64,000 bases of DNA from assembly GCA_016928575.1 (NCBI GenBank), contig JAFGKK010000002.1, forward strand, positions 65,519 through 129,518, in the 5' to 3' direction. Below the pieces are notes generated by a model that saw nothing but the letters and a program-made list of their open reading frames with translations, ran no database searches and had not been told where the DNA came from. The position numbers and the translations under genes are program-made. Shown piece by piece: positions 20,908-55,481 of this stretch; position 1 is the stretch's first letter; each line of letters opens with the position of its first letter. Origin of the DNA: Anaerolineales bacterium. GTDB taxonomy: Bacteria; Chloroflexota; Anaerolineae; Anaerolineales; RBG-16-64-43.

Positions 20908-21142
20908 CGGCATCCTCCCCCGATTGCAAGGCAAACGGGGGAGATAAAGGCGTCCGACATCCTACCCCGGTTACGCGGCAGGCGAGGGAGACGAAGGCGT
21001 ACGACATCCACCCCCGGTTGCGCATCAAACGGAAAGGACGAAGGCGTCCGACATCCTCCCCCGTTTGCGCAGCAAACGGGGGAGACAAAGGCGTCCGGCA
21101 TCCTCCCCCGGTTGCGCAGCAAACGGGGGAGGACAAAGGAGG
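20908..21142. repeat. Five tandem copies of a 47-bp hairpin-containing repeat
   Basis: Units start at 20908, 20955, 21002, 21049 and 21096. The best unit is cgacatcctcccccgtttgcgcagcaaacgggggagacaaaggcgtc, which contains a 13-bp stem ctcccccgtttgc/gcaaacgggggag with a 3-nt loop. The middle copies are degenerate. Confidence 0.9.
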
Positions 21143-31901: not shown

Positions 31902-34134
31902 TGGCCCCCAGCAGAAAAACGCCGTTCGGCGTGGCCGCGTAGACGTTGGATTGCGAGTCGATCACGATGGAATAGACAACCGTTGCGCCGAGCAGGCCGT
32001 CGTTAATGGAACCCCAATGAATCCCGCCGTCGAAAGAAACGTACGCTCCTCCGTCCGTGCCGGCATAGATGATTTCAGAATGGAATGGATCCACAGCGAC
32101 CGAGTTGACGAAAAGGCCGCCCAATCCGTCGTTGCTGGGATTCCAGGATCGACAGCCGTCTGCGCTGATAAGAATCCCATCCCCCTTTGTGGCCAGGTAT
32201 AGTCTTTGGGGATCGTCGGAAACGATATCCACAGAGGTAGGAACCGCTTCGGGCTCCAGACCGCAAAGTTGCCAGGAGGCCCCGTTGTCTGTCGAAACGT
32301 AGGCCGGAGAACCGTATCCGGTGATGTCGACGGAATAGATTATTTCCGATGGGGCGGGCGGGAAGTAGAAACGGCCATACGGGATGTCTTCGCCCGTATT
32401 GTGCGCCCAGTTCTGACCCGCGTCCATGGAAATGAATAGGCTCCGATTGGGATCCATGGAGATATCCGATACGAAGAGCGTATCCTCGCGGGAACTGACA
32501 TTCAATAGGACGCCCCTATTCGCGGTATCCACAGGGGCGGGAAGGAAATCCCATGTTGTTCCTTGGTTTTTTGAAATCCGGATTGTCTGTTCATGGGCAA
32601 GGTACAAATCGCCGTTCTTTCCGATGGAAAGCCAATATCGCGGCCATTCCACCTCGTATGAGCCTCCAAAAAAGGGGCTGGCTTGTTGCCACGGAATCCC
32701 CCAATCGGGGGAATGGAAAATATAGCCGTAGGCGTCTTCCGCATAGAGGCTTTCATGGGCCGGATCCGTTTTCAGCTTTATCCGCAGGTTCCCCAAACCA
32801 TTCCCGATCTCCGTCCAGCTGATGCCGGAATCGGAGGAAGACAATAATCCGCCCTCGCCCCCGCCCAGCATGCGTGTCCCATCGACCGAAAATGCAACGG
32901 GTGCACAACACCGCTCCGGCAATGGGTTCCATGACAAGCCTGCATTGGTGGAGGAATACCCGCCGTTCACGCCATGGCAATACATTGTGGATGGATTGGC
33001 CGGGTTGACATATAAAGCGCTGCAGGCGATCTGCGCCAATTCGCTCCAATTCTGCCCGCCATCATCCGAGGCATACAGCCTGTTTTCAGATCCCACAGAG
33101 GATGCATAGAGGATTTCCCGGCCGCTTGGGTCCGAGCCGATGGCCATCGCATAAATGCCGGTTTCTTCCAGGCCGAGACGCGTCCAATTCCCGCCGCCAT
33201 CGGTAGAGTGAAAAACACCTGCCGGGCAATCCGAATCTTCCCGTATTTGAGTGGCGTACAGTTTTCCGTTTACCTGCGGATGCACGAGGAAGGCCCCAAT
33301 GGCCGATGGGCAAGGGGAAAGGCTCGTCTCGTTCCAGGTCGTGCCGCCGTCGTTTGAGTCCATCCAGCCATAATCCGGCGCTGCCAGGAAGATATGTTGG
33401 TTGTCGAACGGATCAATCAACACGGATGTATCACCCGCGTAAGAATTTTCCATCCGCGTGTCGATGGCCTGCCATGCGCCGCCGCCATTCACGGTTTTGA
33501 AGATCAGGTTGGACGGTGTGCCGGCATAAAGCGTTTGCGGATTCTTCGGATCGATTGCCAGCCCGGAAATGCCGGCGAAGCTCAAGCCGTTTTGAATCGG
33601 CATCAGAGTAATGCCGCCGTCGAGGGATTTGTAGATCCCGGCGTTGCGTGTGCCGATGTAGACTACATCCGGATCGTTGGGATCGATAACGATGCTGGTA
33701 ATCTCATCCCGCGAAAATTCCTGGCCGGTGGAAAGCCGTTTCCACCTTAAGGGGATGAGCGTGGATGTGAAAGCAGGGAGAAGTTCGGGCGTGCTGGTGG
33801 AATAGGGTGTTGCGGTAAATGGCGGATTTGTTGACGGCGCCGTCGTTTCAGCAGGAGAAGCGATGCTTGGGGAGAAGGCTTTCAGGCGGGGAGCCGACCA
33901 TACGGCCAATCCGACCAGGGCAACGGCTCCCAACGCCGCCCATGATTTGGGATTGTTGTACCAGCGCTGGCGCTTGAGCCGCACCATCCGGGCCAGCAGC
34001 CGGGAAGTGTCTTTGTAGTTCTCGTCGATGGCCAGGAGTTGCCTGAGCAGATCGCTGGCGCGGTCGTAATCCTTTGCCGATAGGGCGGCCTTGGCTTGGG
34101 TGTACAGGCTTTCCAGTTCTTGGTCGTCAGCCAT
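31894..34134 (-). CDS. Single-pass membrane protein: short TPR-like cytoplasmic head, TM, extracytoplasmic Asp-box (BNR) propeller region
   Basis: The start is moved to ATG 34134 (MADDQELESLY..), which overlaps the upstream stop by 1 nt. TM helix WAALGAVALVGLAVW. I count 13 Asp-box-like motifs (e.g. SNDGGTTW, STDGGGNW, SDDGGQNW). Confidence 0.8.
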   Translation of the reverse strand: MADDQELESLYTQAKAALSAKDYDRASDLLRQLLAIDENYKDTSRLLARMVRLKRQRWYNNPKSWAALGAVALVGLAVWSAPRLKAFSPSIASPAETTAPSTNPPFTATPYSTSTPELLPAFTSTLIPLRWKRLSTGQEFSRDEITSIVIDPNDPDVVYIGTRNAGIYKSLDGGITLMPIQNGLSFAGISGLAIDPKNPQTLYAGTPSNLIFKTVNGGGAWQAIDTRMENSYAGDTSVLIDPFDNQHIFLAAPDYGWMDSNDGGTTWNETSLSPCPSAIGAFLVHPQVNGKLYATQIREDSDCPAGVFHSTDGGGNWTRLGLEETGIYAMAIGSDPSGREILYASSVGSENRLYASDDGGQNWSELAQIACSALYVNPANPSTMYCHGVNGGYSSTNAGLSWNPLPERCCAPVAFSVDGTRMLGGGEGGLLSSSDSGISWTEIGNGLGNLRIKLKTDPAHESLYAEDAYGYIFHSPDWGIPWQQASPFFGGSYEVEWPRYWLSIGKNGDLYLAHEQTIRISKNQGTTWDFLPAPVDTANRGVLLNVSSREDTLFVSDISMDPNRSLFISMDAGQNWAHNTGEDIPYGRFYFPPAPSEIIYSVDITGYGSPAYVSTDNGASWQLCGLEPEAVPTSVDIVSDDPQRLYLATKGDGILISADGCRSWNPSNDGLGGLFVNSVAVDPFHSEIIYAGTDGGAYVSFDGGIHWGSINDGLLGATVVYSIVIDSQSNVYAATPNGVFLLGANG

Positions 34135-37100
34135 TATGTTCCTTCCAGTTTGAATATTCCATAAGGGGTGGACGCGTAGACGTTGGATTGCGTGTCGATC
34201 ACGATGGAGTAGACGACCGTCGCCCCCAGCAATCCATCGTTGATCGGATCCCAGTGTTGGCCTGCGTCGAAAGAGATATACACTCCGCCGTTCGTCCCCG
34301 CATACATGGTCTGAGGGTTGTTCGGATCGATGGCAATGGCATGGGCGAACAAGTTGCGGAGGCCGGTATTCATCCTTGTCCAGGAGAGGCAGCCGTCCGG
34401 GCTCGCCATCACGCCGCCGCCCCGCGTTGCCGCCCAAATCCGTTTACGATCTTGAGGATTGACGGCCATCATGGAGATTGTTTCCGTGAACGCGTCGAGA
34501 TCGCCGGGTGGATTGCAGTTTGACCATGTCTCCCCGGAATCGCTGGACCGATAAGGCGGATAATCTCCTTCATTTCCATAAACATATACGTCGGTATCGG
34601 AACCGAAAAAGAGTGAGATGGTTTCACCCTGCCGGAGCTCATCGGTTGGAAAACCGCCACTCTCCTTCCAGGTGTTTCCCTTATCCAAGGAGATTAAAAT
34701 GCGATTGAAATATGGCAGGTACACCTTCCCGTCGATGGAGGGGTGGGCGGCGACAATTCCTGGCGAAATCGGATCGGGGACACCCGGTAAAGATGCCCAA
34801 TTCTTCCCGCCGTCTTGAGAGCGTAGTAAACCGTTGAAGTCGGACCGGAATAACGTCTGGCCATCCGCGCTGAAGGCCAATCCATAACCCTTCTGGGTTA
34901 ATGGACTCCAATTCTTTCCTTTGTCCGGGGAATAAAAGAGAGGAACACCTGGCCATTCCGTTCGCTGTCCTTGCAGATAGAAGCTATTGGTATCGCCGGA
35001 ATTTTGATTTAGTAATAATTCGGTTCGAAATCCTCCCAAGCCGTCGCTTTTATCCGTCCAGGAACTCCCCCCATCCACTGATTCGTATACTACCTCTCCT
35101 CCCACAAGTATTGTGTCGGAAGCACCGGGTTTAATGGCGATCTGAATGATCGTTCCATTCGTCCAGGGGAGCTTTTGCCAGTGTTTTCCCGCATCAATGC
35201 TTTTGAAAAGATCGTTGGTTTCTTTACCACAAACGATCATTCGACCATCCTGAGGGGAAATGGCACAGGCCGTAAACACACCGGTGAGCGGGTGGGTCCA
35301 AGTTGAGCCGCCGTCGGAGGAAACATGAACCCCGTCGCGGGCATAGGCAATAATGGTGTTGCCATCCCGGCTGATCTGGAGATTTTCTCCCCAGCCCAGA
35401 TCTTCGATTTTCGGAGAGGCCAATGACCAAGTGTCTCCGCCGTCCGTGGATCGGAAAACGCCGCCATCCGATGCTCCCAACCCGAAATTCGAGACGAACA
35501 AGGTCTGCGGATCAACCGGCGACTCGACAATCCAACCCGCGTTGGGAGGGCAATATTTCCCGCCGTCACAGAAGGTCGACGGGCGCCAGGAATCTCCTCC
35601 GTCGAAGGATTGATAAACGTTGCTGTTGAGATAATAGAGGTTGTTGGAATTCGTGGGGGAGATGGTGACTCCGCTGAACCAAGTGAAACCCCACCCGATA
35701 TTCGCGGAATTCACGGATTTCCAGTTCGCACCCCCATCCGTGGTTTTATAGATCCCGCCGGGCAACACGCTGGCATAAAGGATCTGCGGATTATTCGGGT
35801 CGATGGCCAGGGTTGAGATCGCGGCGCTTTCCAGGCCGGCGTGCGCGGGAAACCACGAAGCCCCTCCATCGATCGTTTTATACACACCGGCATCCGCCGT
35901 CCCGGCATAGATGATCCCCGGATCCTCCGGATCAAATTTTATCGCCGTGACTTTGCTGCGGGTTAAAAACTGTCCCGCATTCAGCCGGATCCATTGAAAC
36001 GGGATCGGCGTCGGTGGAAGAGTGGGCAAGGGCATTGCGGTTACGGTGCGGGTCGGCGATGCGCCCAACAGGTTGGAGAGGGACGTCGGTTGTGTAGAGA
36101 CGGCGGTCGGGCTTGTCGACGACGGCACCATCCTTTGCAAAGCCAACCCACCCAGCACCAGGATTGCCATTGCTCCCACGCCTCCCCAAAGCCACCGCGA
36201 CTGCCAGAATTTGCGTGTTTTCTGGCGCAGCTCAACCGCCTGGGCCAATATTTGCGAAGCGTCTTTGTAGTCCGGGTTATTAATGACGATGCTTTTCATC
36301 AGGCCGATGGCTTTGGCGTAATTCTTTTTCGCCATTGCCCGCTGGGCTTCGGAATACGTCTGCGCCAGGGATTGGGCGCTTTCCACTTTACCCATCTCCC
36401 CGCGAATCATTTCCGCGTCATCGGGCGCAAGCAATAAAAGCTCGTTCCATGCGGTCAAGGCGTCGCTGAATTTTTCGGCCTTCGATAAACTTTGCGCTTT
36501 TGATTGCAGGGAATTTCGCTGCGCTTCGCGCTGCTGGATCTGATTTGCGGCCAGCCTTTTTTGGACGCTCTCGTCATCCGGCATTAAGGCCAGATATTCC
36601 TTCAGGGATGCGATGGCCGCTTCCCAGTTTTTTTCCGCCTCCATTTGTTTCGACCGCGCCCGGAGGATTTCCAAGCGGGCGGTTTGCAATAATTGACGGA
36701 CTTCCGCCAACCGCTTTTGAAGCGCGGCGTCCTCGGGAGCCAATCGAAGCGCTTCTTCCAACGTGGCCGCCGCGGAATCCAGGTTTTTCGCAGATATCTC
36801 CTTCTCGGATTTTGCGACGAGACTTGCCAAAACCTTTGCTTTTTTCTCCGACTGGACGGACTGAACCCGTTCGATGAGGATCGGATCTTCGGGGGTGTAT
36901 TTCAACGCTTCGGCAAATGCGGACAAGGCTTGCTCATCCCGCCCTTCCTTGAGCGCTTTTTCGGCTTGTTGGCGCTGGATTTCGGCCAAGCGTTGGCGCG
37001 CCTCGGTATGCTCCGCGTTGATGGACAATACGCGTTGAAAGGATTGGGTTCCTTCGCGGATCCGGCCCCGGTCCGCGGCGGCGTTGCCGATCGCCAGATG

Positions 37101-38474
37101 CGCTTCACACAACCCGGACCGGGCCGCAACGTCTTCGTCGTCAATCGCCAATGCCTTCTCAAACTCGACCACCGCCTTCTCATAGGATTTCTGCTCCATA
37201 TACACCAGGGCGATGTTGACCAGGGCCTGGGCATTTTCCGGGGCGACCGCGAGCGCTTCCTGGAAACTTTCAATGGCCTTTTCGTAAACGCCGCTGTCTT
37301 TGAACTCCATCCCAATCTCGATATAGCGGTTGGCGATGGGATTTATCTCGGTCAGTTCCTCGCGCACTTGCTCCAGGGGGCGGTTTTTGCACAACCACAG
37401 TTTGAGCAGGTGGATGACAAAGTGATTGTCCGGAGTGAGCACATCTTTCTCGCGCAAGTGGAGCAAGGCGGATGTCAAATTGGAGTCGCTGAAACGGACG
37501 CGCTGCTTGCGCAGAAAGTCGGCAAGGCCGCGGCTGTCCGCCGGACCGAGCTGTGCGAGGGCCGCCAGGGACCATTTTTCCAGATCCGCGGCCTCGTCCC
37601 AGAGGAATTTTAAATTGACCGTTCCGCGTTCCACCACATCGTCCAGAACGGCTTCGACATCCGATTTGCCGATTTCCCGTTGGCCCGTCCGCTGGCAGCG
37701 CGCGAATAATTCATGACAGATCAGCTGGGTGAAGTATGGATGACCGGAAGCGATCTGATAAATGGAATGGGCGGACGGACGCTGGTAATTAATCAGGCCT
37801 TCCACCGGCAGTGTGATCAGGTTGCGCGATTCATCCTCGGAAAGAAAGCTGATCTTTTTGTACAGGGCCGTTTTAAAAAAATCGGTATACGCGGCCTGCA
37901 TGTTTTCCAGTTTCCGTCCCGAGGAACCGATGGAGAATATGAAATTAAGCCCCTGTTGTTCCAGCAGCCGGCGCAGATAATCGATCAGCGGGCGGGCCAG
38001 CGCTTCCCGGACCTCCGATTCTTCCAAATTGTCAAATTCGTCAAATGTCAGCAGCAGCGAATGGTCGCCAAGAATGGGCTTTAAGCCGGGGATAAATTGA
38101 TGTTCGAAATATTCCAAATCGGCAGTAAAGAGGCCTTTTTCCGGCAACGGAACGTCCAAGTTATGGGCTTGCTTGAGCCCCCGGACAATTTCACGCGCGA
38201 GCCACCATAAAAAACGGTCCAGGGTCGTGTGCGTACGGCCTTGAAAGTCGAAGAAAACCGGGATAAAACGCTCCGGCAGGCGGTTTCCCAGTTGCTTGAG
38301 GACGGATGTCTTCCCCACCCGCCTTTGACCGTGGAGAACCAAGATGTGGTCGGCATACCGTCCGGAAAGGTTATTCCGGATCCAATCAAAGACATCCTCC
38401 CGGCCGAAGAACATCCTGGCTTCGGTAACGGGTGCGCCGGCAATATATGGGTTTACAATTTCGTCCATATTCAC
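34134..38474 (-). CDS. Transmembrane STAND/ATPase_2-like NTPase with TPR array and extracytoplasmic Asp-box (BNR) propeller region
   Basis: 1446 aa. N-terminal NPYIAGAPVTEARMFFGRE, Walker A GQRRVGKTS and Walker B LLLTFDEFD. About 350 aa of TPR-like repeats. TM helix WLWGGVGAMAILVLGGLAL (nt ~36133-36195). 13 Asp-box-like motifs (TIDGGASW, TTDGGANW, STDGGDTW..). Start is GTG 38474 or ATG 38468. Confidence 0.85.
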   Translation of the reverse strand: MNMDEIVNPYIAGAPVTEARMFFGREDVFDWIRNNLSGRYADHILVLHGQRRVGKTSVLKQLGNRLPERFIPVFFDFQGRTHTTLDRFLWWLAREIVRGLKQAHNLDVPLPEKGLFTADLEYFEHQFIPGLKPILGDHSLLLTFDEFDNLEESEVREALARPLIDYLRRLLEQQGLNFIFSIGSSGRKLENMQAAYTDFFKTALYKKISFLSEDESRNLITLPVEGLINYQRPSAHSIYQIASGHPYFTQLICHELFARCQRTGQREIGKSDVEAVLDDVVERGTVNLKFLWDEAADLEKWSLAALAQLGPADSRGLADFLRKQRVRFSDSNLTSALLHLREKDVLTPDNHFVIHLLKLWLCKNRPLEQVREELTEINPIANRYIEIGMEFKDSGVYEKAIESFQEALAVAPENAQALVNIALVYMEQKSYEKAVVEFEKALAIDDEDVAARSGLCEAHLAIGNAAADRGRIREGTQSFQRVLSINAEHTEARQRLAEIQRQQAEKALKEGRDEQALSAFAEALKYTPEDPILIERVQSVQSEKKAKVLASLVAKSEKEISAKNLDSAAATLEEALRLAPEDAALQKRLAEVRQLLQTARLEILRARSKQMEAEKNWEAAIASLKEYLALMPDDESVQKRLAANQIQQREAQRNSLQSKAQSLSKAEKFSDALTAWNELLLLAPDDAEMIRGEMGKVESAQSLAQTYSEAQRAMAKKNYAKAIGLMKSIVINNPDYKDASQILAQAVELRQKTRKFWQSRWLWGGVGAMAILVLGGLALQRMVPSSTSPTAVSTQPTSLSNLLGASPTRTVTAMPLPTLPPTPIPFQWIRLNAGQFLTRSKVTAIKFDPEDPGIIYAGTADAGVYKTIDGGASWFPAHAGLESAAISTLAIDPNNPQILYASVLPGGIYKTTDGGANWKSVNSANIGWGFTWFSGVTISPTNSNNLYYLNSNVYQSFDGGDSWRPSTFCDGGKYCPPNAGWIVESPVDPQTLFVSNFGLGASDGGVFRSTDGGDTWSLASPKIEDLGWGENLQISRDGNTIIAYARDGVHVSSDGGSTWTHPLTGVFTACAISPQDGRMIVCGKETNDLFKSIDAGKHWQKLPWTNGTIIQIAIKPGASDTILVGGEVVYESVDGGSSWTDKSDGLGGFRTELLLNQNSGDTNSFYLQGQRTEWPGVPLFYSPDKGKNWSPLTQKGYGLAFSADGQTLFRSDFNGLLRSQDGGKNWASLPGVPDPISPGIVAAHPSIDGKVYLPYFNRILISLDKGNTWKESGGFPTDELRQGETISLFFGSDTDVYVYGNEGDYPPYRSSDSGETWSNCNPPGDLDAFTETISMMAVNPQDRKRIWAATRGGGVMASPDGCLSWTRMNTGLRNLFAHAIAIDPNNPQTMYAGTNGGVYISFDAGQHWDPINDGLLGATVVYSIVIDTQSNVYASTPYGIFKLEGT

Positions 38475-40359: not shown

Positions 40360-40514
40360 GGATTTTTTTCGCGCAATTTTCCGGCCACCGAAGCGGAAAT
40401 GCGGTCCCGGCTACTCCGCTTCAGAACCAGAGTATTGGGATTGATCTATAATTGGGCATATTCCCTGCTTTTACAAGCGTGGCAAGCCCTAAGAAACGAC
40501 AACACCGGAGCGCT

Positions 40515-42497
40515 ATGGACCAACCACAACTGAACTGGATCGCCAACTTCATCTGGGGAATCGCCGACGACGTGCTCCGCGACCTCTACGTGCGCGGCAA
40601 GTACCGCGACGTGATCCTGCCGATGACGGTGCTGCGCCGCTTCGACGCGGTGCTCGAGCCTACCAAGCAGGCCGTGCTCGATATGAAGAAGAAGCTCGAT
40701 AAGGCGAAAATTACCAACCAGGATCCGGCGCTCCGCCAGGCGGCCGGGCAGGGTTTTTACAACACCTCCAAATTCACCCTGCGCGATTTAAAGGCCCGCG
40801 CCAGCCAGCAGCAGCTCCGGGCTGATTTCGAAGCCTACCTCGGAGGCTTCTCGCCCAACGTCCAGGAGATCCTCGAAAATTTCGAGTTCCGCAACCAAAT
40901 TCCAAGGCTCTCGAAGGCCGATGCGCTGGGCACGCTGATCGAGAAGTTCCTCTCGCCCGAAATCAACCTCAGCCCGAACCCGGTCCTGAATTCCGACGGC
41001 TCGGAAAAGACACCCGGCCTCGACAACCACGCCATTGGGACCGTATTTGAAGAGCTGGTGCGGCGCTTCAACGAGGAAAACAACGAGGAGGCCGGCGAGC
41101 ACTGGACCCCGCGGGACGCGGTGCGGCTGATGGCGAACCTGATTTTCCTGCCGATCGCCGACGAAATCGAATCCGGGACCTACCTGCTCTACGACGGCGC
41201 GCTCGGCACCGGCGGCATGCTGACCGTGGCGGAAGAGACGCTCAAGGAGCTGGCCGGGAAGCACGGCAAGCAGGTCGCCACGCACCTCTACGGACAGGAG
41301 ATCAACTCCGAGACCTACGCCATCTGCAAGGCGGACCTGCTGCTCAAGGGCGAGGGCGAGGCGGCCGACAACATCGTCGGCGGCCCCGAGTATTCCACGC
41401 TCTCCAACGACGCCTTCCCCTCGCGCGAATTCGACTTCATGCTCTCCAACCCGCCGTACGGAAAAAGCTGGAAAAGCGACCTGGAGCGGATGGGCGGCAA
41501 GGGCGGGATCAAGGACCCGCGCTTTGTCATCGAGCACGCGGGGGATCCGGAATACTCGCTGATAACCCGCTCGAGCGACGGCCAGATGCTGTTCCTGGCG
41601 AATATGCTTTCCAAGATGAAGCACGGCAACAAGCTCGGCAGCCGGATCGCCGAGGTGCACAACGGCTCATCGCTGTTCACCGGCGATGCCGGGCAGGGCG
41701 AGAGCAACATCCGCCGTTGGATCATCGAGAACGATTGGCTGGAGGCGATCGTCGCCCTGCCGCTTAATATGTTCTACAACACCGGCATCGCCACCTACAT
41801 CTGGGTGATTGGCAACCGCAAGCCCAAACACCGCGCCGGCAAGGTGCAGCTCATCGACGCCACGCAGTGGTACAAGCCGCTGCGTAAGAACCTGGGCAAG
41901 AAGAACTGCGAGCTCTCGCCTGAAGATATCGAGCGGATTTGCGACGCATTCCTGCGGTTCGAGGAAACTGAGCAATCGAAAATCTTCCCGAACGCCGCCT
42001 TCGGCTACTGGAAGGTGACGGTCGAACGCCCGCTCCGGTTGAAGGGCATCGACCCCGAAAAGGAATATTCGCCGAAGGAAATCAAGGCGCTCAAAGAAAG
42101 TTCCGAGCGCGCCGAGGATGCGCCGCCGGTCATCCGCAAGATTCATAGGAAGGGAACCGCCGCCGATCCGCTGCGCGGATTGTTCCCGGTGACCATCGGC
42201 GGAAAAGCGGCCGTCGTCGAATACGAGCCCGACCCGGACCTGCGCGACACCGAGCAGGTGCCGATGCTGGAAAAGGGCGGCGTCGAGCCCTTCATCCGCC
42301 GCGAAGTGCTTCCGCACGCCGCGGACGCCTGGATCCTCGCCGAGAGCGTCAAGACCGGATACGAGATCAGCTTCACGCGCTACTTCTACAAGCCGCAGCC
42401 GCTGCGCACGCTGGAGGAAATCCGCACCGACATCCTGGCGCTGGACAAGGAAACCAAGGGTCTCTTGGATGAGATCATCGGGGGCAATGGGGCATGA
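40515..42497 (+). CDS. hsdM: Type I restriction-modification system, DNA methyltransferase subunit M
   Basis: HsdM N-terminal domain NWIANFIWGIADDVLRDLYVRGKYRDVILPMTVLRRFD. AdoMet motif YDGALGTGGML. Catalytic NPPYG (MLSNPPYGKSW). The start is moved to ATG 40515. Confidence 0.92.
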   Translation: MDQPQLNWIANFIWGIADDVLRDLYVRGKYRDVILPMTVLRRFDAVLEPTKQAVLDMKKKLDKAKITNQDPALRQAAGQGFYNTSKFTLRDLKARASQQQLRADFEAYLGGFSPNVQEILENFEFRNQIPRLSKADALGTLIEKFLSPEINLSPNPVLNSDGSEKTPGLDNHAIGTVFEELVRRFNEENNEEAGEHWTPRDAVRLMANLIFLPIADEIESGTYLLYDGALGTGGMLTVAEETLKELAGKHGKQVATHLYGQEINSETYAICKADLLLKGEGEAADNIVGGPEYSTLSNDAFPSREFDFMLSNPPYGKSWKSDLERMGGKGGIKDPRFVIEHAGDPEYSLITRSSDGQMLFLANMLSKMKHGNKLGSRIAEVHNGSSLFTGDAGQGESNIRRWIIENDWLEAIVALPLNMFYNTGIATYIWVIGNRKPKHRAGKVQLIDATQWYKPLRKNLGKKNCELSPEDIERICDAFLRFEETEQSKIFPNAAFGYWKVTVERPLRLKGIDPEKEYSPKEIKALKESSERAEDAPPVIRKIHRKGTAADPLRGLFPVTIGGKAAVVEYEPDPDLRDTEQVPMLEKGGVEPFIRREVLPHAADAWILAESVKTGYEISFTRYFYKPQPLRTLEEIRTDILALDKETKGLLDEIIGGNGA

Positions 42498-43186
42498 AGG
42501 GCGATATACCGGAAAAACCTCGTCGTAAATCGCTCCGGCTGCCTAACTACGATTACGCGGCCGACGGCGCCTATTTTGTAACCATCTGCACGGCCGGCCG
42601 CCAATGCCTGTTTGGAGAGGCGGCAGGCGGCCGGGTCATCCTGAAAGACGGCGGTCGAGCAGCGCGGGCGTGTTGGATGGAAATTCCCGCCCATTACCCG
42701 GCGGTGCGATTGGATTCGTTCGTAGTGATGCCGAACCATATTCACGGGATCATCGTGATTGACAATTCGGCGGATATCGGGATGGCGCGGGACGCAGGGG
42801 CGAATGGTATTTCCGCAGGGGCGAACGGTATTTCCGCAGGGGCGAATAATTATTCGCCCCTACGGGGACCCGTGTTGCGGACCGCATCCCGTGGTGCGGA
42901 TGTCCGCGCGGCGGTGCGGTTCCGTTCCCCGTCCAGGACCGTGGGATCCATTGTGCGCGGGTTTAAAATCGGCGTGACGAAATGGTTCCGATCGAACACG
43001 GACGTCGCCAACGTCTGGCAACGCAACTATTACGAACACATCATCCGCGACGAGGCGTCGTTGCGGCGCATCCGCGAGTATATCGCCGCGAATCCTGCGC
43101 GGTGGGCGTACGATGCCGAAAACCAGGAACACGCGCGGGCCGACGGCATTCCGCTCCAGGTTCCGGGCGAGGGTAAACACGTATGA
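42494..43186 (+). CDS. IS200/IS605-like Y1 (HUH) transposase homologue, RAYT-like
   Basis: 230 aa. Motif PNYDYAADGAYFVTICT. HUH motif VVMPNHIHGIIVI. Catalytic-Tyr motif WQRNYYEHIIRDE..IREYIAANPARW. ATGA overlaps with hsdM (42494-42497) and hsdS (43183-43186). Confidence 0.8.
   Translation: MKGDIPEKPRRKSLRLPNYDYAADGAYFVTICTAGRQCLFGEAAGGRVILKDGGRAARACWMEIPAHYPAVRLDSFVVMPNHIHGIIVIDNSADIGMARDAGANGISAGANGISAGANNYSPLRGPVLRTASRGADVRAAVRFRSPSRTVGSIVRGFKIGVTKWFRSNTDVANVWQRNYYEHIIRDEASLRRIREYIAANPARWAYDAENQEHARADGIPLQVPGEGKHV
42794..42860. repeat. 2.5 copies of a 21-nt tandem repeat ending in a perfect 22-nt palindrome, inside the RAYT-like ORF
   Basis: gcaggggcgaatggtatttcc / gcaggggcgaacggtatttcc / gcaggggcgaataattattcgcccc. 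The palindrome ggggcgaataattattcgcccc lies at 42839-42860. The repeat encodes GANGISAGANGISAGANNYSP in frame. Confidence 0.9.
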
Positions 43187-44535
43187 TCGCCGAGCTAAAG
43201 GCTTATCCTAAAATGAAGGACTCCGGCGTGCCGTGGCTCGGGAAGATCCCGTACCATTGGAATATGAGGCGCGCGAAATGGTTATTTCGAAAAATGAATC
43301 GTATCGTTCGCGATTTTGATGAAGTGGTTACTTGTTTTCGCGATGGCTCAGTTACATTAAGGAAGAACAGAAGACTACGTGGATTTACCGAGTCCTTGAA
43401 GGAAATCGGATATCAAGGAATTCGGCAGGGTGACCTTGTAATACATGCAATGGATGCCTTTGCGGGTGCAATCGGGGTTGCTGATTCCGATGGAAAGGGC
43501 ACACCTGTTTATTCGGTATGTAAGCCTATGCAGGCGGCTAACTCGCACTACTTTGCATTTACAGTAAGAGAGATGGCTCGGAGCGCGTGGATTCAAGCCC
43601 TAGCAAAGGGAATACGGGAGAGATCAACGGATTTCCGTTTTGAGGAATTCTCTTCACAATTATTGCCTCTTCCGCCGAGCGGCGAACAAGCAGCCATCGT
43701 CCGCTTCCTCGACTACATGGACCGGCGGATACGGCGATACATTCGCGCCAAGCAGAAGCTGATCAAACTGCTGGAGGAGCAGAAGCAGGCCATCATCCAC
43801 CGCGCCGTCACCCGCGGGCTCGATCCAAACGTCCGCCTCAAGCCGTCCGGCGTGGCGTGGTTGGGGGAGGTGCCGGAGCACTGGGAAATTAGGCGATTAA
43901 AAAACCTATGCTCAATGAGGAGTGGTGAGGGCATTACTGCAATTTCAATCGAGCCGAAGGGTGATTATCCCGTATTCGGTGGTAACGGGATACGAGGTTA
44001 TACATCTCAATATACACATGATGGAAATTTTATTTTACTCGGGCGTCAAGGGGCATTATGTGGAAATGTTCATGTTGCACATGGCCGTTTTTGGGCTTCA
44101 GAGCATGCAGTAGTAACCACACTCCATGGAACCAACGATTTAAATTGGTTAGCTGCAGTATTACGAATAATGAATCTTAATCAATATTCAATAGCAGCGG
44201 CACAACCTGGGCTTGCCGTCGAAAGGATTCAGAACCTTACAATACCAATTCCTCCCAGACAAGAACAGGAGTTTATTGCTGAAAAAATCCAAGGATCAAC
44301 AACAAGTTTAGCGATTGCCATCGAAAAAATGCATCGCGAGATTTCAATTATCCGCGAATACCGCACCCGCCTTATCGCCGACGTGGTCACCGGCAAACTC
44401 GACGTGCGCGAGGCGGCGGCGCGCCTGCCGGATGAGATGGAGGAACCCGAGCCGATCGAAGAAGAATCGGAGAATGGCGCGGAAGAAGCGGAATCCGGTG
44501 AGATGGATGAGGCGCCGGAGGAGGCCGAATCATGA
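43183..44535 (+). CDS. hsdS: Type I restriction-modification system, specificity subunit S
   Basis: Two variable target-recognition regions alternate with two conserved helices: LPLPPSGEQAAIVRFLDYMDRRIRRYIRAKQKLIKLLEEQKQAIIHRAVTRG and IPIPPRQEQEFIAEKI..REISIIREYRTRLIADVVTGKLDVRE. Acidic C-terminal tail. Confidence 0.9.
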   Translation: MIAELKAYPKMKDSGVPWLGKIPYHWNMRRAKWLFRKMNRIVRDFDEVVTCFRDGSVTLRKNRRLRGFTESLKEIGYQGIRQGDLVIHAMDAFAGAIGVADSDGKGTPVYSVCKPMQAANSHYFAFTVREMARSAWIQALAKGIRERSTDFRFEEFSSQLLPLPPSGEQAAIVRFLDYMDRRIRRYIRAKQKLIKLLEEQKQAIIHRAVTRGLDPNVRLKPSGVAWLGEVPEHWEIRRLKNLCSMRSGEGITAISIEPKGDYPVFGGNGIRGYTSQYTHDGNFILLGRQGALCGNVHVAHGRFWASEHAVVTTLHGTNDLNWLAAVLRIMNLNQYSIAAAQPGLAVERIQNLTIPIPPRQEQEFIAEKIQGSTTSLAIAIEKMHREISIIREYRTRLIADVVTGKLDVREAAARLPDEMEEPEPIEEESENGAEEAESGEMDEAPEEAES

Positions 44536-45176
44536 CCGTTCCGGCGCAGCCCAAGATTTATCATATCGTTCATGTGGACCTGCTGGAATCCATCATTGCC
44601 GACGGACAAATCTGATGCGATCGGGAGAAACAAAGGCATCCGCTTACCGGAACTCCCATCGGGATGAGCGGGGTTAAGCGGCGGCGGCTTGAAGAGCTGC
44701 GTCTTTCCAGCCATCCCGACCTGTTCGTGGGGGATTGCGTGCCTTTCTACTTTTGACCGCGTTCGGTCATGCTGTACATGATCGCCCAGGGCAATCATCC
44801 GGAACTAACCTACCATGGCGGGCAGGATCCCATTATCCATCTCGAAGCCGACCTGCGTTCGGTAGTCGCCTGGGCCGATGCAAATGGCCGGCGTTGGGCT
44901 TTCACATTATCCAACGCGGGCGCCCGGTATTTTGAGGACCGGTGCGACCTTGACCGGCTTGGCGAAATAAATTGGGACGCGGTGGAAGCCACCGAATGGA
45001 GGTTATGCAAAGACGGAAAACAAGCCGAATTCCTTCTGGAACGCAGCTTTCCCTGGAGCTTGGTGGAACGGATCGGGGTACATTCGCAGGGAATCTACCA
45101 AAGGGTGGCGAATGCCCTTCCGAAAACGGGCCATCATCCGGGGGCGGAAATCCGCACGGAATGGTATTATCCATGA
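44532..45176 (+). pseudogene. darT: DarT (DUF4433) ssDNA ADP-ribosyltransferase toxin, single frame interrupted by two in-frame TGA codons
   Basis: One frame from ATG 44532 to TGA 45176 reads MTVPAQPKIYHIVHVDLLESIIADGQI*CDRE..FVGDCVPFYF*PRSVMLYMIAQG..WAFTLSNAGARYF..KQAEFLLERSFPW. The in-frame TGAs lie at 44613-44615 and 44754-44756. No frameshift. ATGA overlaps at both ends. Confidence 0.8.
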
Positions 45177-46252
45177 AGGAGACCGCGATGATCGAATATA
45201 AAAGCGGCGACATTTTGAACAGCAAGGCCGACGCGCTCGTCAACAGCGTCAATTGCGTCGGCGTGATGGGGCGCGGAATCGCGTTGCAGTTCAAAACCGC
45301 CTATCCGGACAACTTCAAAGCGTATGCCGCGGCCTGCAAACGGGAGGAAATTCAGCCCGGCCGCATGTTTGTCTTTGAAACCGGCCGGATAGACCCTCCG
45401 CGGTTCATTATCAATTTCCCCACCAAACGCCACTGGCGGGGTAAGAGCCGGATCGAAGATATCGAAGCCGGATTGACGGCGCTTGCGGGAGTCATTCGTT
45501 CCAAGGGTATTCATTCGATTGCGATCCCGCCCTTGGGGGCCGGTCTGGGCGGGCTGGATTGGGCCAGCGAGGTGCGGCCGCGCATCGAGCAAGCATTGAG
45601 TCCGCTGACCGATGTGACCGTTCTCATTTATAAGCCGGAAGGGGCGCCGGCGTCGGACGTCATGAAGCACCGCCGTGATGTGCCAAAAATGACTCCCGGC
45701 CGGGCCGCCTTGGTGGGATTGATGTCCCGCTATCTCGGCGGTCTGCTCGATCCTTTCATTACTCTTCTGGAATTGCATAAACTGATGTATTTTATGCAGG
45801 AGGCCGGAGAGCCTTTACAGCTTCGATATAAGCAAGGTCTCTTTGGCCCGTATGCGGAAAATTTACGCCACGTTTTGCATGAAATCGACGGGTACATGGT
45901 CGCCGGATACAACAACGGCGGCGACGCGCCCCATAAGCAATTAACTCTTGTGCCCGGGGCGGTGGCGGATGCCGAAACTATCCTGAATGAGCATGAGGAT
46001 ACACGCGTTCGTTTCGACCGGGTGGCTTCGCTGGTGGATGGTTTCGAATCGCCGTTTGGATTGGAATTGCTTTCCACCGTCCATTGGGTGATGAAGAACG
46101 AGCCGGTGCGTTCGCAGGAGGAGGTAGTCGATCGCACCTATTCGTGGAACGAGCGCAAGCGTCAGTTTACCCCCCGTCAAATAAAAATCGCAGCGGAGAC
46201 CCTCATGGAAAAGGAATGGGTGTCTCCCCTGCCTGGGCAAATCTCGCAGTGA
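45173..46252 (+). CDS. darG: DarG antitoxin (macrodomain DNA ADP-ribosyl glycohydrolase + C-terminal DarT-binding domain)
   Basis: Macrodomain IEYKSGDILNSKADALVNSVNCVGVMGRGIALQFK..INFPTKRHWRGKSR..IAIPPLGAGLGGLDW. ATGA overlap with darT at 45173-45176. Confidence 0.85.
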   Translation: MKETAMIEYKSGDILNSKADALVNSVNCVGVMGRGIALQFKTAYPDNFKAYAAACKREEIQPGRMFVFETGRIDPPRFIINFPTKRHWRGKSRIEDIEAGLTALAGVIRSKGIHSIAIPPLGAGLGGLDWASEVRPRIEQALSPLTDVTVLIYKPEGAPASDVMKHRRDVPKMTPGRAALVGLMSRYLGGLLDPFITLLELHKLMYFMQEAGEPLQLRYKQGLFGPYAENLRHVLHEIDGYMVAGYNNGGDAPHKQLTLVPGAVADAETILNEHEDTRVRFDRVASLVDGFESPFGLELLSTVHWVMKNEPVRSQEEVVDRTYSWNERKRQFTPRQIKIAAETLMEKEWVSPLPGQISQ

Positions 46253-49200
46253 GCGTCACCGACATCTCCGAACGCGGCCTCGAAAGTCTGATCTGCGCGG
46301 CGTTGACCGGCTCGCCGTGTCTGTCCGCCGAAGGCTCGGCGATGGCGGGCGAAACGGGAGACGCCCAAGCTGTCCATGAACGGCCGGCGGCCTACGGAGC
46401 CGGATGGATCTGCGGCGATCCGGAAGCCTACGACCGCGAATATTGCGTCGACCTCGCCCAATTATCGGCTTTCCTGAACGCGACCCAGCCGGAAACCGCC
46501 GACGCGCTCGAACTCGGCCGCGACGGCCCTGCGCGCCGCTCGTTCCTGGCGCGGTTGCAGGGCGAAATCAGCAAGCGCGGAACCATCGACGTCTTACGCA
46601 ACGGCATTAAGCACGGACCGCACCACATCGACCTGTTTTTCGGAACCCCCTCGCCGGGCAACGCCAAAGCTGCCGAGCGCTTTGCCGCGGACCGTTTCAG
46701 CGTCACCCGCCAGTTGCGCTACAGCCGGGATGAAACCCAGCATTCGCTCGACCTGTGCCTATTCATTAACGGTCTGCCCGTCGCCACCTTCGAACTGAAG
46801 AACAGCCTGACCAAGCAAACGGTCGAGGACGCCATCCAGCAGTACCAGCGCGACCGCGATCCGCGCGAGAGGCTCTTCGAGTTCGGGCGCTGCGTGGCGC
46901 ATTTCGCCGTGGACGACCATGAAGTGCGTTTCTGCACCCACCTCGCCGGCAAGAGCGCCTGGTTCCTGCCTTTCAACCGGGGCTGGAACGACGGCGCAGG
47001 CAATCCACCCAATCCGGACGGCTTGAAAACCGACTACCTCTGGAAGCGAATCCTCACCCGCGACGGCCTCACAGACATTCTCGAAAACTACGCGCAGATC
47101 ATCGAAACCAAGGACCCGAAGTCCGGTAAGAAAAAAGCGGTTCAAATCTGGCCGCGGTTCCATCAGCTCGACGTGGTGCGCAAACTGCTCGCCGACATCC
47201 GGGAAGCCGGCGCCGGCCGGCGCTACCTGGTCCATCACTCGGCGGGGAGCGGAAAATCCAACTCCATCGCCTGGCTGGCGCACCAGCTGATCGGCTTGAA
47301 AAAGAACGACGCCGCTGTCTTCGATTCGATCATCGTCGTCACCGACCGGATCCTCCTCGACCAGCAGATCCGCGACACGATCAAACAATTCGCCCAGGTC
47401 AGCGCCACGGTCGGCCATGCCGAGCGTTCGGGGGACCTGCGCAAGTTCATCGCCGAGGGAAAGAAGATCATCATCACCACGGTGCAGAAGTTCCCCTTTA
47501 TTCTCGATGAGATCGGCAGCGAGCATCGCGGGCGGAAATTCGCGATCATCATCGACGAGGCGCACTCCAGCCAGGGCGGCCGCACCTCGGCGGCGTTGTC
47601 GATGGCGCTCTCCGCGGCCGGAGCCGAGGACGAAGACGAAACGCTGGAAGACAAGATCAACCGGTTGATGGAATCCAAGAAGCTGCTGCCCAACGCCAGC
47701 TACTTCGCCTTCACGGCCACGCCCAAGAACAAGACGCTCGAGATTTTCGGCGAGCCCGAGCCGCAGCCGGACGGCAAGGTCAAGCACCGGCCGTTCCACA
47801 GCTATACGATGAAGCAAGCCATCCAGGAGGGTTTCATCCTGGATGTGCTTAAGTATTACACGCCGGTGGACAGCTACTACAAGCTGGTCAAGAAAATCGA
47901 GGGCGACCCCGAATTCGACACCAAACGGGCGAAGAAAAAACTGCGCCGCTACGTCGAAAGCCACGAACACGCCATCCGGCTCAAAGCCGAGATCATGGTC
48001 GACCACTTCCACGAGCAAGTTTTGGCGCTGAATAAAATCGGCGGCGAGGCGCGGGCGATGGTCGTGACGAGCGGCATCGAGCGCGCAATACAGTACTTCC
48101 ACGCCATCCGCGACTACCTGGCCGAGCGCAAGAGCCGTTACCGGGCGATTGTGGCGTTTTCGGGCGAGCACGAATACGGCGGGGTCAAGGTCACTGAGGC
48201 GTCTCTCAACGGTTTCCCTTCCAGCCAAATCGCCGACAAAATTCAGGAGGATCCGTATCGTTTTCTGATCTGCGCCGATAAATTCCAGACCGGATACGAC
48301 GAACCGCTTCTGCACACGATGTACGTGGATAAGGTGCTTTCCGGGATCAAGGCCGTGCAGACCCTTTCGCGCCTCAACCGGGCGCATCCGAAGAAGCACG
48401 ACGTGTTCGTGCTCGACTTCATGAACGACTCCGACACGATCCAGTTGGCGTTCTCCGACTACTACCGGACGACGATTCTGGCGGAGGAGACCGATCCCAA
48501 CAAACTGCACGACCTGAAGGCATCACTCGACGATTATCAGGTCTATGCACCCGTGCAGGTGGAAGAGCTCGTAGCGCTCTATCTGGGCGGCGCCGACCGC
48601 GACCGGCTCGACCCGATCCTCGACGCCAGCGTCGCGGAATACCGGGGGCGGCTGAACGAGGACGGGCAGGTCGATTTCAAGGGAAAGGCCAAAGCCTTCC
48701 TGCGGACATACGGATTCCTATCCTCGATCCTGCCGTATACCAATGCCGATTGGGAAAAGCTTTCAATCTTCTTAACATTCCTGGTTCCCAAATTACCGGC
48801 GCCGGTGGAAGAAGACCTCGCGCGTGGGATCCTCGAAGCGATCGACATGGACAGTTATCGAGTGGAAAAACAGGCGGCCATCCGGATCCAGCTTCCCGAC
48901 GCTGACGCGGAGATTGGCCCGGTCCCCGCGCTCGGCGGCGGCCACCTGCCCGAACCCGAACTCGACCGGCTTTCCAACATCATCAAAGCCTTCAATGACC
49001 AATTCGGGAACATCCCCTGGTCCGATGCCGACCGGGTACACAAGCTGATCACCGAGGACATCCCCAGCCGGGTCGCTGCGGACAAGGCGTACCAAAATGC
49101 GCGACTGAATTCCGACAGACAAAACGCCCGGATCGAGCACGACAAGGCGCTCGCCCGGGTGATGACGACGGTGCTGAGGGACGACACCGAGTTGTTCAAA

Positions 49201-49281
49201 CAGTTCATGGATAATGAGGGATTCCGGCGCTGGCTGACGGATACGGTGTTCGGGCTGACGTATGAATCCCCAAGACCATAG
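46249..49281 (+). CDS. hsdR: Type I restriction enzyme, endonuclease/translocase subunit R
   Basis: N-terminal PD-(D/E)xK region DLCLFINGLPVATFELKN. Helicase motif I HHSAGSGKSNSIAWLA and motif II IIIDEAHSSQ. Later motifs are present. GTG 46249 is proposed as the start because it forms a GTGA overlap with the darG stop. ATG 46216 is the alternative. Confidence 0.9.
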   Translation: MSVTDISERGLESLICAALTGSPCLSAEGSAMAGETGDAQAVHERPAAYGAGWICGDPEAYDREYCVDLAQLSAFLNATQPETADALELGRDGPARRSFLARLQGEISKRGTIDVLRNGIKHGPHHIDLFFGTPSPGNAKAAERFAADRFSVTRQLRYSRDETQHSLDLCLFINGLPVATFELKNSLTKQTVEDAIQQYQRDRDPRERLFEFGRCVAHFAVDDHEVRFCTHLAGKSAWFLPFNRGWNDGAGNPPNPDGLKTDYLWKRILTRDGLTDILENYAQIIETKDPKSGKKKAVQIWPRFHQLDVVRKLLADIREAGAGRRYLVHHSAGSGKSNSIAWLAHQLIGLKKNDAAVFDSIIVVTDRILLDQQIRDTIKQFAQVSATVGHAERSGDLRKFIAEGKKIIITTVQKFPFILDEIGSEHRGRKFAIIIDEAHSSQGGRTSAALSMALSAAGAEDEDETLEDKINRLMESKKLLPNASYFAFTATPKNKTLEIFGEPEPQPDGKVKHRPFHSYTMKQAIQEGFILDVLKYYTPVDSYYKLVKKIEGDPEFDTKRAKKKLRRYVESHEHAIRLKAEIMVDHFHEQVLALNKIGGEARAMVVTSGIERAIQYFHAIRDYLAERKSRYRAIVAFSGEHEYGGVKVTEASLNGFPSSQIADKIQEDPYRFLICADKFQTGYDEPLLHTMYVDKVLSGIKAVQTLSRLNRAHPKKHDVFVLDFMNDSDTIQLAFSDYYRTTILAEETDPNKLHDLKASLDDYQVYAPVQVEELVALYLGGADRDRLDPILDASVAEYRGRLNEDGQVDFKGKAKAFLRTYGFLSSILPYTNADWEKLSIFLTFLVPKLPAPVEEDLARGILEAIDMDSYRVEKQAAIRIQLPDADAEIGPVPALGGGHLPEPELDRLSNIIKAFNDQFGNIPWSDADRVHKLITEDIPSRVAADKAYQNARLNSDRQNARIEHDKALARVMTTVLRDDTELFKQFMDNEGFRRWLTDTVFGLTYESPRP

Positions 49282-55437: not shown

Positions 55438-55481
55438 CCCCTTTCCCCTCTCCTGACATATGTCAGGAGAGGGGAAAGGGG
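55438..55481. terminator. Perfect 21-bp inverted repeat between convergent genes (bidirectional terminator candidate)
   Basis: cccctttcccctctcctgaca ta tgtcaggagaggggaaagggg. An outer imperfect extension pairs cctcaccc with ggggtgagg. No clear U-tract. Confidence 0.5.

Follow-up and report, generated by a model that had tools for sequence, protein, structure and literature searches.

The stretch of DNA considered here, referred to below as the window, comprises 64,000 nucleotides (nt) of an Anaerolineales bacterium (Chloroflexota; GenBank assembly GCA_016928575.1, contig JAFGKK010000002.1, positions 65,519 to 129,518 of the forward strand) and contains a type I restriction-modification (R-M) operon in which a gene for a REP-associated tyrosine transposase (RAYT, also written TnpA_REP; REP stands for repetitive extragenic palindrome) is nested between hsdM and hsdS. 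Among domesticated transposases of bacteria, RAYTs provide the best example. The genes of the operon follow one another in the order hsdM-RAYT-hsdS-darT (pseudogene)-darG-hsdR, and all five junctions are formed by 4-nt NTGA overlaps of start and stop codons, four of which are ATGA, with the fifth, at darG/hsdR, being GTGA if hsdR starts at 46249. The ATGA overlaps of the RAYT gene with both of its neighbours, which had been reported in the initial annotation, can be read directly in the junctions GCATGAAG (hsdM stop and RAYT start) and GTATGATC (RAYT stop and hsdS start). The region from 40452 to 49281 is an unusually complete translational-coupling chain that spans core and cargo genes, and HsdM and HsdS are full length according to Pfam and PADLOC. 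A scan for promoters and terminators detected none at the RAYT open reading frame (ORF) or at the hairpin that it contains, after which no T-run follows. Since the RAYT gene possesses neither a promoter nor ends of its own and is the second link of a six-gene overlap chain, its product would be made from the hsd transcript by translational coupling, and co-expression with the hsd genes is very likely. The coordinates of the features are collected in Table 1.

Table 1. Features of the RAYT-bearing type I R-M operon in the window.
Feature	Position	Strand	Evidence
hsdM, type I methyltransferase subunit	40452..42497	+	Pfam N6_Mtase 1.9e-49, HsdM_N 4.9e-23; PADLOC MTase_I 9e-241
RAYT / TnpA_REP gene, 230 aa, intact	42494..43186	+	homologues, NCBIfam, Foldseek, alignment to 4ER8
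HUH motif PNHIHGI (H82, H84)	42731..42751	+	invariant alignment columns; pairs with HMH of 4ER8
Variable linker (residues 96-138) holding repeats and REP	42779..42907	+	AlphaFold2 pLDDT; length variation in homologues
Three tandem 21-nt units	42793..42855	+	100/95/81% identical copies
In-frame REP, 32 nt with one mismatch	42834..42865	.	contains perfect 22-nt palindrome
Predicted GTAG-recognition segment WQRNYYEHIIR	43016..43048	+	alignment to 4ER8
Predicted catalytic Tyr, Y196-IAA-N200-P201 (EYIAANP), class-2 Y---NP	43079..43096	+	alignment to 4ER8
hsdS, specificity subunit	43183..44535	+	Pfam Methylase_S 2.4e-24; PADLOC Specificity_I 1.8e-87
darT pseudogene	44532..45176	+	ATG overlaps hsdS stop; match to DarT profile positions 70-201 starting at 44769
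darG antitoxin, macro domain, intact	45173..46252	+	NCBIfam antitoxin_DarG 4.1e-139; ATG overlaps darT stop
hsdR	46249..49281	+	Pfam HSDR_N, SWI2_SNF2, ResIII, T1R_D3-like

Judged from its sequence, the nested ORF is an intact RAYT of the TnpA_Y1 subclass 2.4 type, and its placement in this subclass follows from the diagnostic features of insertion, in-frame REP and motifs. More than 7900 database proteins, with lengths of 170-319 amino acids (aa), match it at about 50% identity, and an exact look-up of its own sequence gave no record. In an alignment with 27 homologues, both halves of the core are highly conserved, separated by a stretch of variable length in which tandem peptide repeats are frequent. 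The HUH, WQ..EH..R and Y---NP motifs are all intact and invariant among the aligned homologues, with Y196, I197, N200 and P201 forming invariant columns. The initial annotation was right in regarding the HUH motif as intact, and its choice of WQRNYYEH as the catalytic tyrosine motif has to be revised on the basis of the alignment to E. coli TnpAREP (4ER8). W175, Q176, E181, H182 and R185 align to W94, Q95, E100, H101 and R104 of that enzyme, which are its GTAG-recognising residues (PMC6006769), while Y196...N200-P201 aligns to Y115...N119-P120, so that the catalytic tyrosine is assigned to Y196 in a Y---NP arrangement, the class-2 signature of TnpA_Y1 (PMC6006769). In the AlphaFold2 model, the core reaches a pLDDT (predicted local distance difference test) of about 90, and residues 96-138, with a pLDDT below 50, are predicted to be disordered. 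The best Foldseek match of the protein is 4ER8_A, the complex of TnpAREP with a REP hairpin (E 1.4e-5; template-modelling score 0.62 normalised by target length), followed by the transposases of IS608 and ISDra2.

The variable linker between the two halves of the core contains both the repeats and the palindrome that had attracted attention at first. The 21-nt repeat, the perfect 22-nt palindrome and their reading in frame were described correctly in the initial annotation, apart from the number of copies, which is three rather than 2.5. Each 21-nt unit begins with the left arm of the REP, CGCAGGGGCGAA, and the right arm follows the third unit only, so that the last unit runs into the palindrome GGGGCGAATAATTATTCGCCCC (42839-42860), which is in frame with the RAYT gene as GANGISAGANGISAGANNYSPL and is translated as GANNYSPL. 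The feet of this REP are 5'-GCAG on the plus strand and the canonical 5'-GTAG on the minus strand, that is, GCAG...CTAC where a double foot is expected. Minimum-energy folding produces this hairpin for DNA and RNA alike, the RNA fold that includes it reaching -41.5 kcal/mol with z = -2.5, and no Rfam family is found at this position. No other copy of the palindrome exists in the 64-kb window when up to 3 mismatches are allowed. The description of the linker as variable in the initial annotation is in agreement with the predicted disorder of this loop and with the variation of its length in homologues, among which comparable, independent duplications of repeats occur (for example, L002 and P0001/P0005/P0022).

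Homologous loci were examined in three samples, namely 80 genomic loci, 80 metagenomic loci and six proteins encoded on longer contigs that are among those most similar in the database. For the first two samples, the best 80 were taken from the first 600 pattern matches of the respective collection, and these loci lean to relatives of the query. The initial annotation treated the hairpin as a peculiarity of this gene and held that its absence from homologues would count against the proposed reading, but in homologues it turned out to be a family trait: a hairpin of at least 8 bp is present at the equivalent linker position in 157 of 164 homologous genes (96%), and one of at least 11 bp in 120 of them, while the rest of those 164 genes (67.7 kb) contains a single hairpin of at least 11 bp in total. 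In linkers, the density of stems of at least 11 bp is 6.0 per kb, which is 29-fold that of the flanks (0.21 per kb). The usual form is a 28-nt GTAG-N20-CTAC hairpin, the stems of which differ from gene to gene (GGGGCGAAAAA, GGGGCACGGCA, GGGGCGCAGCA, GAGACGCAAAA, GGGGTTGAAAA and others) through compensatory changes, and 110 of 131 homologous hairpins carry GT[AG]G, C[TC]AC or both as canonical feet.

The conservation of this hairpin is exerted on the nucleic acid. An amino-acid covariation (K-F, N-Y, E-P) in the 27-homologue alignment gave the first hint of a nucleotide-level constraint, and across the family the peptide encoded at the hairpin is changed completely with the pairing kept (VGAKNFSPL, VGARHAVPL, VETQNFASL, RGTACRAPT, GVLQYAPT, VGVENFQPL). 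In 93 distinct 28-mers, 92% of cells are paired versus 41-52% with the partner slid, and both-sided changes are seen in 10 of 12 stem pairs, amounting to 178 cells against 37 in shuffled data and 13-36 with the partner slid; these figures carry the caveat that each 28-mer is the best hairpin of its linker, the within-gene control being the fairer one for non-randomness. The hairpin is read in frame 0 (GTA GGG...) in 112 of 131 cases, in frame 1 in 18 and in the third frame in one. An equal use of the three frames was considered and rejected on these counts, the third frame reading TAG as a stop.

A copy of the palindrome with at most 2 mismatches is present outside the gene in 65 of 157 loci, within 1 kb of it in 52, which is the classical REP-flanked RAYT arrangement. 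Judged from its GTAG/CTAC foot, the conservation of the element at the nucleotide level and these external copies, the palindrome inside the gene is a true REP, and of the kind proper to this enzyme, which is in line with the earlier suggestion of a cognate site. External REPs also lie between hsdS and the RAYT gene (L010, L011, L027). Two BIME-like arrays (resembling bacterial interspersed mosaic elements) were encountered outside the gene: six copies of the window REP type (GGGGCGAATAATTATTCGCCCC together with its feet), spaced 103-107 nt apart, in L045 (3920-4466), and six local REPs in two alternating variants at alternating 79/108-nt spacing in L059 (16045-16440). Local copies were additionally observed within uninterrupted hsdM or hsdR ORFs, at 4566-4593 in L010, 6392-6419 in L047, and 5095-5122 and 5333-5364 in L011, where they constitute in-frame REP insertions in restriction genes adjoining the RAYT gene.

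Most of these properties place the gene within a known group. Subclass 2.4 has been characterised by a variable insertion with short DNA repeats between HuH and Tyr, with a median HuH-Y distance of 88 aa (PMC6006769), and by in-frame "double-foot" REPs inside the gene with 5' GT[AG]G and 3' C[TC]AC (Quentin, Siguier, Chandler, Fichant 2018, BMC Genomics 19:475, PMC6006769). The window gene, in which H84 and Y196 are 112 aa apart, shares with this subclass the insertion with repeats, the in-frame REP, a foot of the GT[AG]G...C[TC]AC kind on the minus strand, the W/Q/E/H/R residues and Y---NP, as well as a patchy distribution over several phyla (Bacteroidota, Cyanobacteria, Chloroflexota and others). 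The in-ORF REP with its repeats is accordingly a published hallmark of the subclass and not a novelty; the nucleotide-level constraint is real, yet it was described in 2018 (PMC6006769), and the present data add numbers (96% of genes, the covariation, the frame bias) and no new kind of observation. The differences from the subclass as published are that the window gene is without an external REP in 64 kb, unlike the REPtron (a gene flanked by REPs), that its REP has the canonical GTAG on the minus strand only, and that it is fused into a type I R-M operon through 4-nt overlaps. With E. coli TnpAREP (4ER8; subclass 2.2; Bertels Group 2), the protein shares the fold, the HUH motif, the Tyr followed by N-P, the GTAG residues, and a single-copy behaviour within the window that is not that of an insertion sequence (IS), although the two are 16% identical in the structural alignment, and the E. 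coli enzyme has neither a long linker nor an in-ORF REP and is associated with long, bulged, single-footed REPs. The relationship to TnpA of IS200/IS605 (IS608, ISDra2) consists in a related fold and, by analogy, in HUH/Y1 chemistry that would act on hairpins in single-stranded DNA (ssDNA), whereas the Y---Q motif, left and right end hairpins, frequent tnpB, multiple copies and mobility of those elements are not seen for the window gene.

The genomic context of the homologues is what the present analysis adds. Genes of type I systems were detected by tblastn with a panel of Hsd queries and by Pfam and PADLOC on truncated neighbours, and the figures are raw locus counts that ignore kinship. RAYT genes in other hsd loci, for which the initial annotation had proposed to look, are recurrent: adjacent type I genes, without exception co-oriented with the RAYT gene, were detected at 31 of 160 loci, made up of 12 of the 80 genomic and 19 of the 80 metagenomic ones. 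When the count is restricted to loci that extend 3 kb or more in each direction, type I neighbours occur in 7 of 46 genomic and 8 of 20 metagenomic cases. About 80% of family members are located among ordinary or housekeeping genes. Of the earlier claim of an enzyme co-opted by and expressed with a restriction system, the co-expression is very likely, while co-option itself is a suggestion to be set against that majority elsewhere.

Several approaches converge on the same neighbours. In an annotation-free clustering of ORFs within 5 kb, HsdR (24 loci), HsdS (20) and HsdM (18) were the only strongly recurrent neighbours, followed by Fic (6 loci) and RhuM (5), with all other families at 5 or fewer and generic-looking. 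Fic and RhuM are classical hsd cargo. According to Pfam, immediate upstream neighbours (n = 130) include Methylase_S 11 times, N6_Mtase 4 times and HsdM_N 3 times, and immediate downstream neighbours (n = 131) include HSDR_N 13 times, families unrelated to type I R-M having at most 2 members each. PADLOC model matches numbered 358 and 279 for immediate neighbours and 20 for 130 control ORFs 7-10 kb away, among which there was no type I match. The commonest order is M-S-RAYT-R, with the RAYT gene 3-140 nt upstream of hsdR, and hsdR directly follows the RAYT gene in 20 of 32 nested loci; the M-RAYT-S(-R) order of the window recurs in L081, L076 and L116, and R-RAYT-M and S-RAYT-M also occur. Overlaps of 4 nt with a neighbour are found again at L047, L021, L014, P0001 and P0007.

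In the sample of most similar proteins, the single best match (P0001) has the order S-RAYT-R with a 4-nt overlap, P0007 has an hsdR-RAYT junction with a 4-nt overlap, the RAYT gene of P0022 abuts a type IIG/L enzyme, that of P0010 has a type IIG enzyme and an OLD/ABC pair as neighbours, that of P0032 lies 5 kb from McrB, and P0012 has an ordinary context. Close RAYT homologues situated directly 3' of type IIG/L R-M enzymes (MmeI_Mtase/Eco57I/TaqI_C) were noted at L167 (2176-6744) and L165 (762-6639), and in L165 the genes for an AAA_15/AAA_21 ATPase and an OLD-like TOPRIM protein come next. The link may extend beyond type I systems.

The nested arrangement is a recurrent habit of the subclass that did not arise from a single inherited event. 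In a neighbour-joining tree of the core domain, the nested RAYTs are dispersed, and the Hsd proteins of the host operons have a median identity of 30% (HsdR) and 27% (HsdM), against 44-47% for the RAYTs, with a correlation between Hsd and RAYT identity of r = 0.31 for HsdR and r = -0.07 for HsdM. The Hsd proteins of the window are at most about 29% identical to those of other complete host operons, the HsdM remnants of L014 being closer. A single clade of hsd-nested RAYTs co-inherited with the operon was rejected on the basis of the scatter in the tree, the Hsd identities and the weak correlation, and a phage-borne origin was likewise discarded, only 2 relatives being present in the viral collection. 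All 32 nested copies retain an intact ORF and HUH motif, and 31 of them keep Y---NP and the hairpin. A different fate of such a locus is seen in L014 (283-1226), where an 87-aa ORF composed of N- and C-terminal HsdM pieces, 62-68% identical to window HsdM, overlaps the start of an intact RAYT gene by 4 nt; it is a decayed hsdM-RAYT junction at which the RAYT gene has outlived the R-M system.

The recurrent type I R-M context of subclass 2.4 RAYTs appears to be undescribed. The words "restriction" and "hsd" are absent from PMC6006769, and no description that links RAYT, TnpAREP, IS200 or COG1943 with hsd or restriction, or that treats RAYT as hsd cargo, was found in open-access papers and preprints. 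With other cargo of type I R-M operons (Fic, RhuM, DarTG, AlbA_2/Schlafen-like, MNT-HEPN), which occurs beside the RAYT gene in RAYT-bearing operons, the gene shares a co-oriented position between hsd genes and an association with many unrelated operon families; unlike them, it brings its own repeated DNA element.

Taken together, the gene probably encodes a REP-specific ssDNA nickase that is carried as co-expressed cargo of the type I R-M operon. On the model of E. coli TnpAREP, the enzyme would be a monomeric HUH protein that binds a GTAG-footed hairpin in ssDNA and nicks and rejoins the strand beside it. The palindrome would represent the double-foot REP of the subclass, placed in the disordered loop that connects the HUH strand to the helix preceding the Tyr region, and would be retained as nucleic acid, being the kind of substrate on which the enzyme acts, rather than for the peptide. 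The 21-nt repeats can be understood as duplications of the left arm of the REP in a loop that tolerates changes in length, arising either from slippage at the hairpin or from the cut-and-join activity of the enzyme itself. The RAYT gene would then be a long-resident cargo gene like Fic, RhuM and DarTG, neither a recent insertion nor a demonstrated component of restriction.

Two alternatives to this reading concern the nature of the gene and of its palindrome, and both are highly improbable. A recent insertion of an IS200/IS605-type element into the hsd operon would be in line with the distant homology to the TnpA proteins of IS200, IS608 and ISDra2 and with the weak Pfam Y1_Tnp match, but it is contradicted by the 4-nt overlaps on both sides, which leave no space for end hairpins, by the class-2 Y---NP in place of the IS200-type Y---Q, and by the full length of HsdM and HsdS. 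The initial annotation, which held the gene to be a RAYT-type Y1 HUH enzyme rather than a mobile IS and pointed to flanking IS ends or a tnpB as the features to look for, is supported in this respect, neither of these nor a second RAYT copy being present within the 64-kb window and 4ER8 being the best structural match. It is just as implausible that the palindrome is a by-product of a conserved peptide (VGAKNFSPL) or of chance. The motif G-A-x-N-x-S-P is nearly invariant in the closest 27 homologues and one frame dominates, as a peptide constraint would predict; yet the peptide is replaced across the family while the palindrome stays, synonymous positions track the pairing together with the covarying stem pairs, the hairpin occurs in two reading frames or switches frame where the loop is odd, copies of the sequence recur in non-coding flanks, and 0 of 100 shuffles yielded the palindrome.

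The remaining alternatives concern the reason for the nesting, and the readings are ranked with long-term cargo or hitch-hiking first, a functional accessory next and a hairpin acting in cis on the operon mRNA last. It is rather unlikely that the RAYT serves as a functional accessory of type I R-M systems or of a defence island, for example as a hairpin-specific ssDNA nuclease against DNA that type I enzymes cannot restrict (ssDNA phages, conjugative entry of ssDNA), or alternatively as a modulator of self-restriction at replication forks. Such a role would fit the recurrent, independent and always co-oriented embedding in operons of unrelated families, the spread of nested genes over the RAYT tree, the intactness of the nested copies, the recurring translational-coupling overlaps, close relatives beside type IIG/L R-M enzymes, the OLD/ABC ATPase pair and McrB, the near absence from viral contigs, and an operon in the window shared with DarTG, which likewise acts on ssDNA. 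It is opposed by the large share of the family among housekeeping genes, the lack of any PADLOC model matching the RAYT protein, the varying position in the operon (M-RAYT-S, S-RAYT-R, R-RAYT-M), and the REP spread into hsd genes, which resembles local proliferation and not cooperation; guilt by association fits selfish cargo equally well. The fuller proposal that selection maintains subclass 2.4 RAYTs as recurrent partners of R-M systems, of type I and in some cases of type IIG/L, in which the nickase aids defence or controls R-M and the in-ORF REP is a built-in regulatory or recognition site, is advanced with the same low confidence. Less probable still is the view that the hairpin and not the enzyme is selected, with an intercistronic REP acting as a stabiliser of mRNA 3' ends or as a partial barrier, the RAYT ORF being a mere carrier, and with product ratios set in cis (HsdR below HsdM/S, or M2S1 in the window). 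REPs are as a rule found 3' of coding regions, and a function as RNA elements is possible (PMC3733652), which agrees with the position of the RAYT gene directly 5' of hsdR in most nested loci, with the external REPs between hsdS and the RAYT gene, and with the strength of the RNA hairpin. Decay of the ORF would however be expected, and all nested ORFs are intact; moreover, neither a T-run nor a terminator-like site accompanies the hairpin, ribosomes would unwind it inside a translated ORF, and the same in-ORF REP is present in the approximately 80% of genes outside hsd operons. The cargo reading is ranked first in consistency with that distribution and with the REPs that spread into hsd genes in L010, L011 and L047.

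Several points weigh against the reading of the gene as a REP-specific nickase carried as cargo. The protein scores 20.6 bits against Pfam PF01797 (Y1_Tnp) with a cut-off of 23, and 60.6 bits (1.4e-16) against NCBIfam NF047646 (REP_Tyr_transpos) with a cut-off of 80, so that neither cut-off is reached; they are narrowly missed, the match being split by the long linker, and with NF047646 describing equivalogs of the E. coli type, the miss weakens a designation as E. coli-type RayT and not the class membership. Activity on double-foot REPs is extrapolated by analogy from an E. coli enzyme of low identity, and the frame bias of 112 versus 18 leaves some peptide constraint possible. No REP lies outside the RAYT ORF in the 64-kb window, where the REPtron arrangement is not found, and the foot on the plus strand is GCAG instead of GTAG, so that the enzyme may lack targets apart from its own gene and may therefore be an "orphan" whose sole local site is situated within that gene. 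Finally, cargo status explains neither the preference for type I systems nor the intactness of every nested copy.

The contribution of this analysis is the context, namely that a sizeable minority of the subclass resides in type I R-M operons, as seen in three independent samples and across phyla and unrelated R-M families. A functional link would offer a testable cellular role for RAYTs and would add an ssDNA-hairpin nuclease to the accessory genes of restriction; if the link reflects hitch-hiking only, type I operons are long-term shelters for REP and RAYT, which would explain the REP insertions inside hsd genes.

The other genes of the operon and its surroundings deserve brief mention. The true start of hsdM is probably the ATG at 40515 (MDQPQLNWI...), and the start of hsdR is uncertain, the GTG at 46249 overlapping the darG stop (GTGA) and the listed ORF beginning at 46084. 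Two in-frame TGA codons (44613-44615 and 44754-44756) interrupt darT, the N-terminal part of which (MTVPAQPKIYHIVHVD..., IYHIVHVD...) is in the same frame as the C-terminal ORF; the second TGA stands for the Cys of a conserved VPFYFCPRS. With darT broken and darG whole, the toxin is disabled and the antitoxin kept. Just upstream of the operon and divergent from it, a gene on the minus strand (34134-38474) encodes a 1446-aa protein that combines an AAA/ATPase_2 domain at its N-terminus with TPR repeats and, at its C-terminus, a BNR/sortilin-type propeller. Elsewhere in the window, three nearby copies of another 29-33-nt hairpin (CTCCCCCGTTTGC...GCAAACGGGGGAG), unrelated to the GTAG REP, are located at 20915-21133, and a perfect 44-nt palindrome, CCCCTTTCCCCTCTCCTGACATATGTCAGGAGAGGGGAAAGGGG, is located at 55438-55481.

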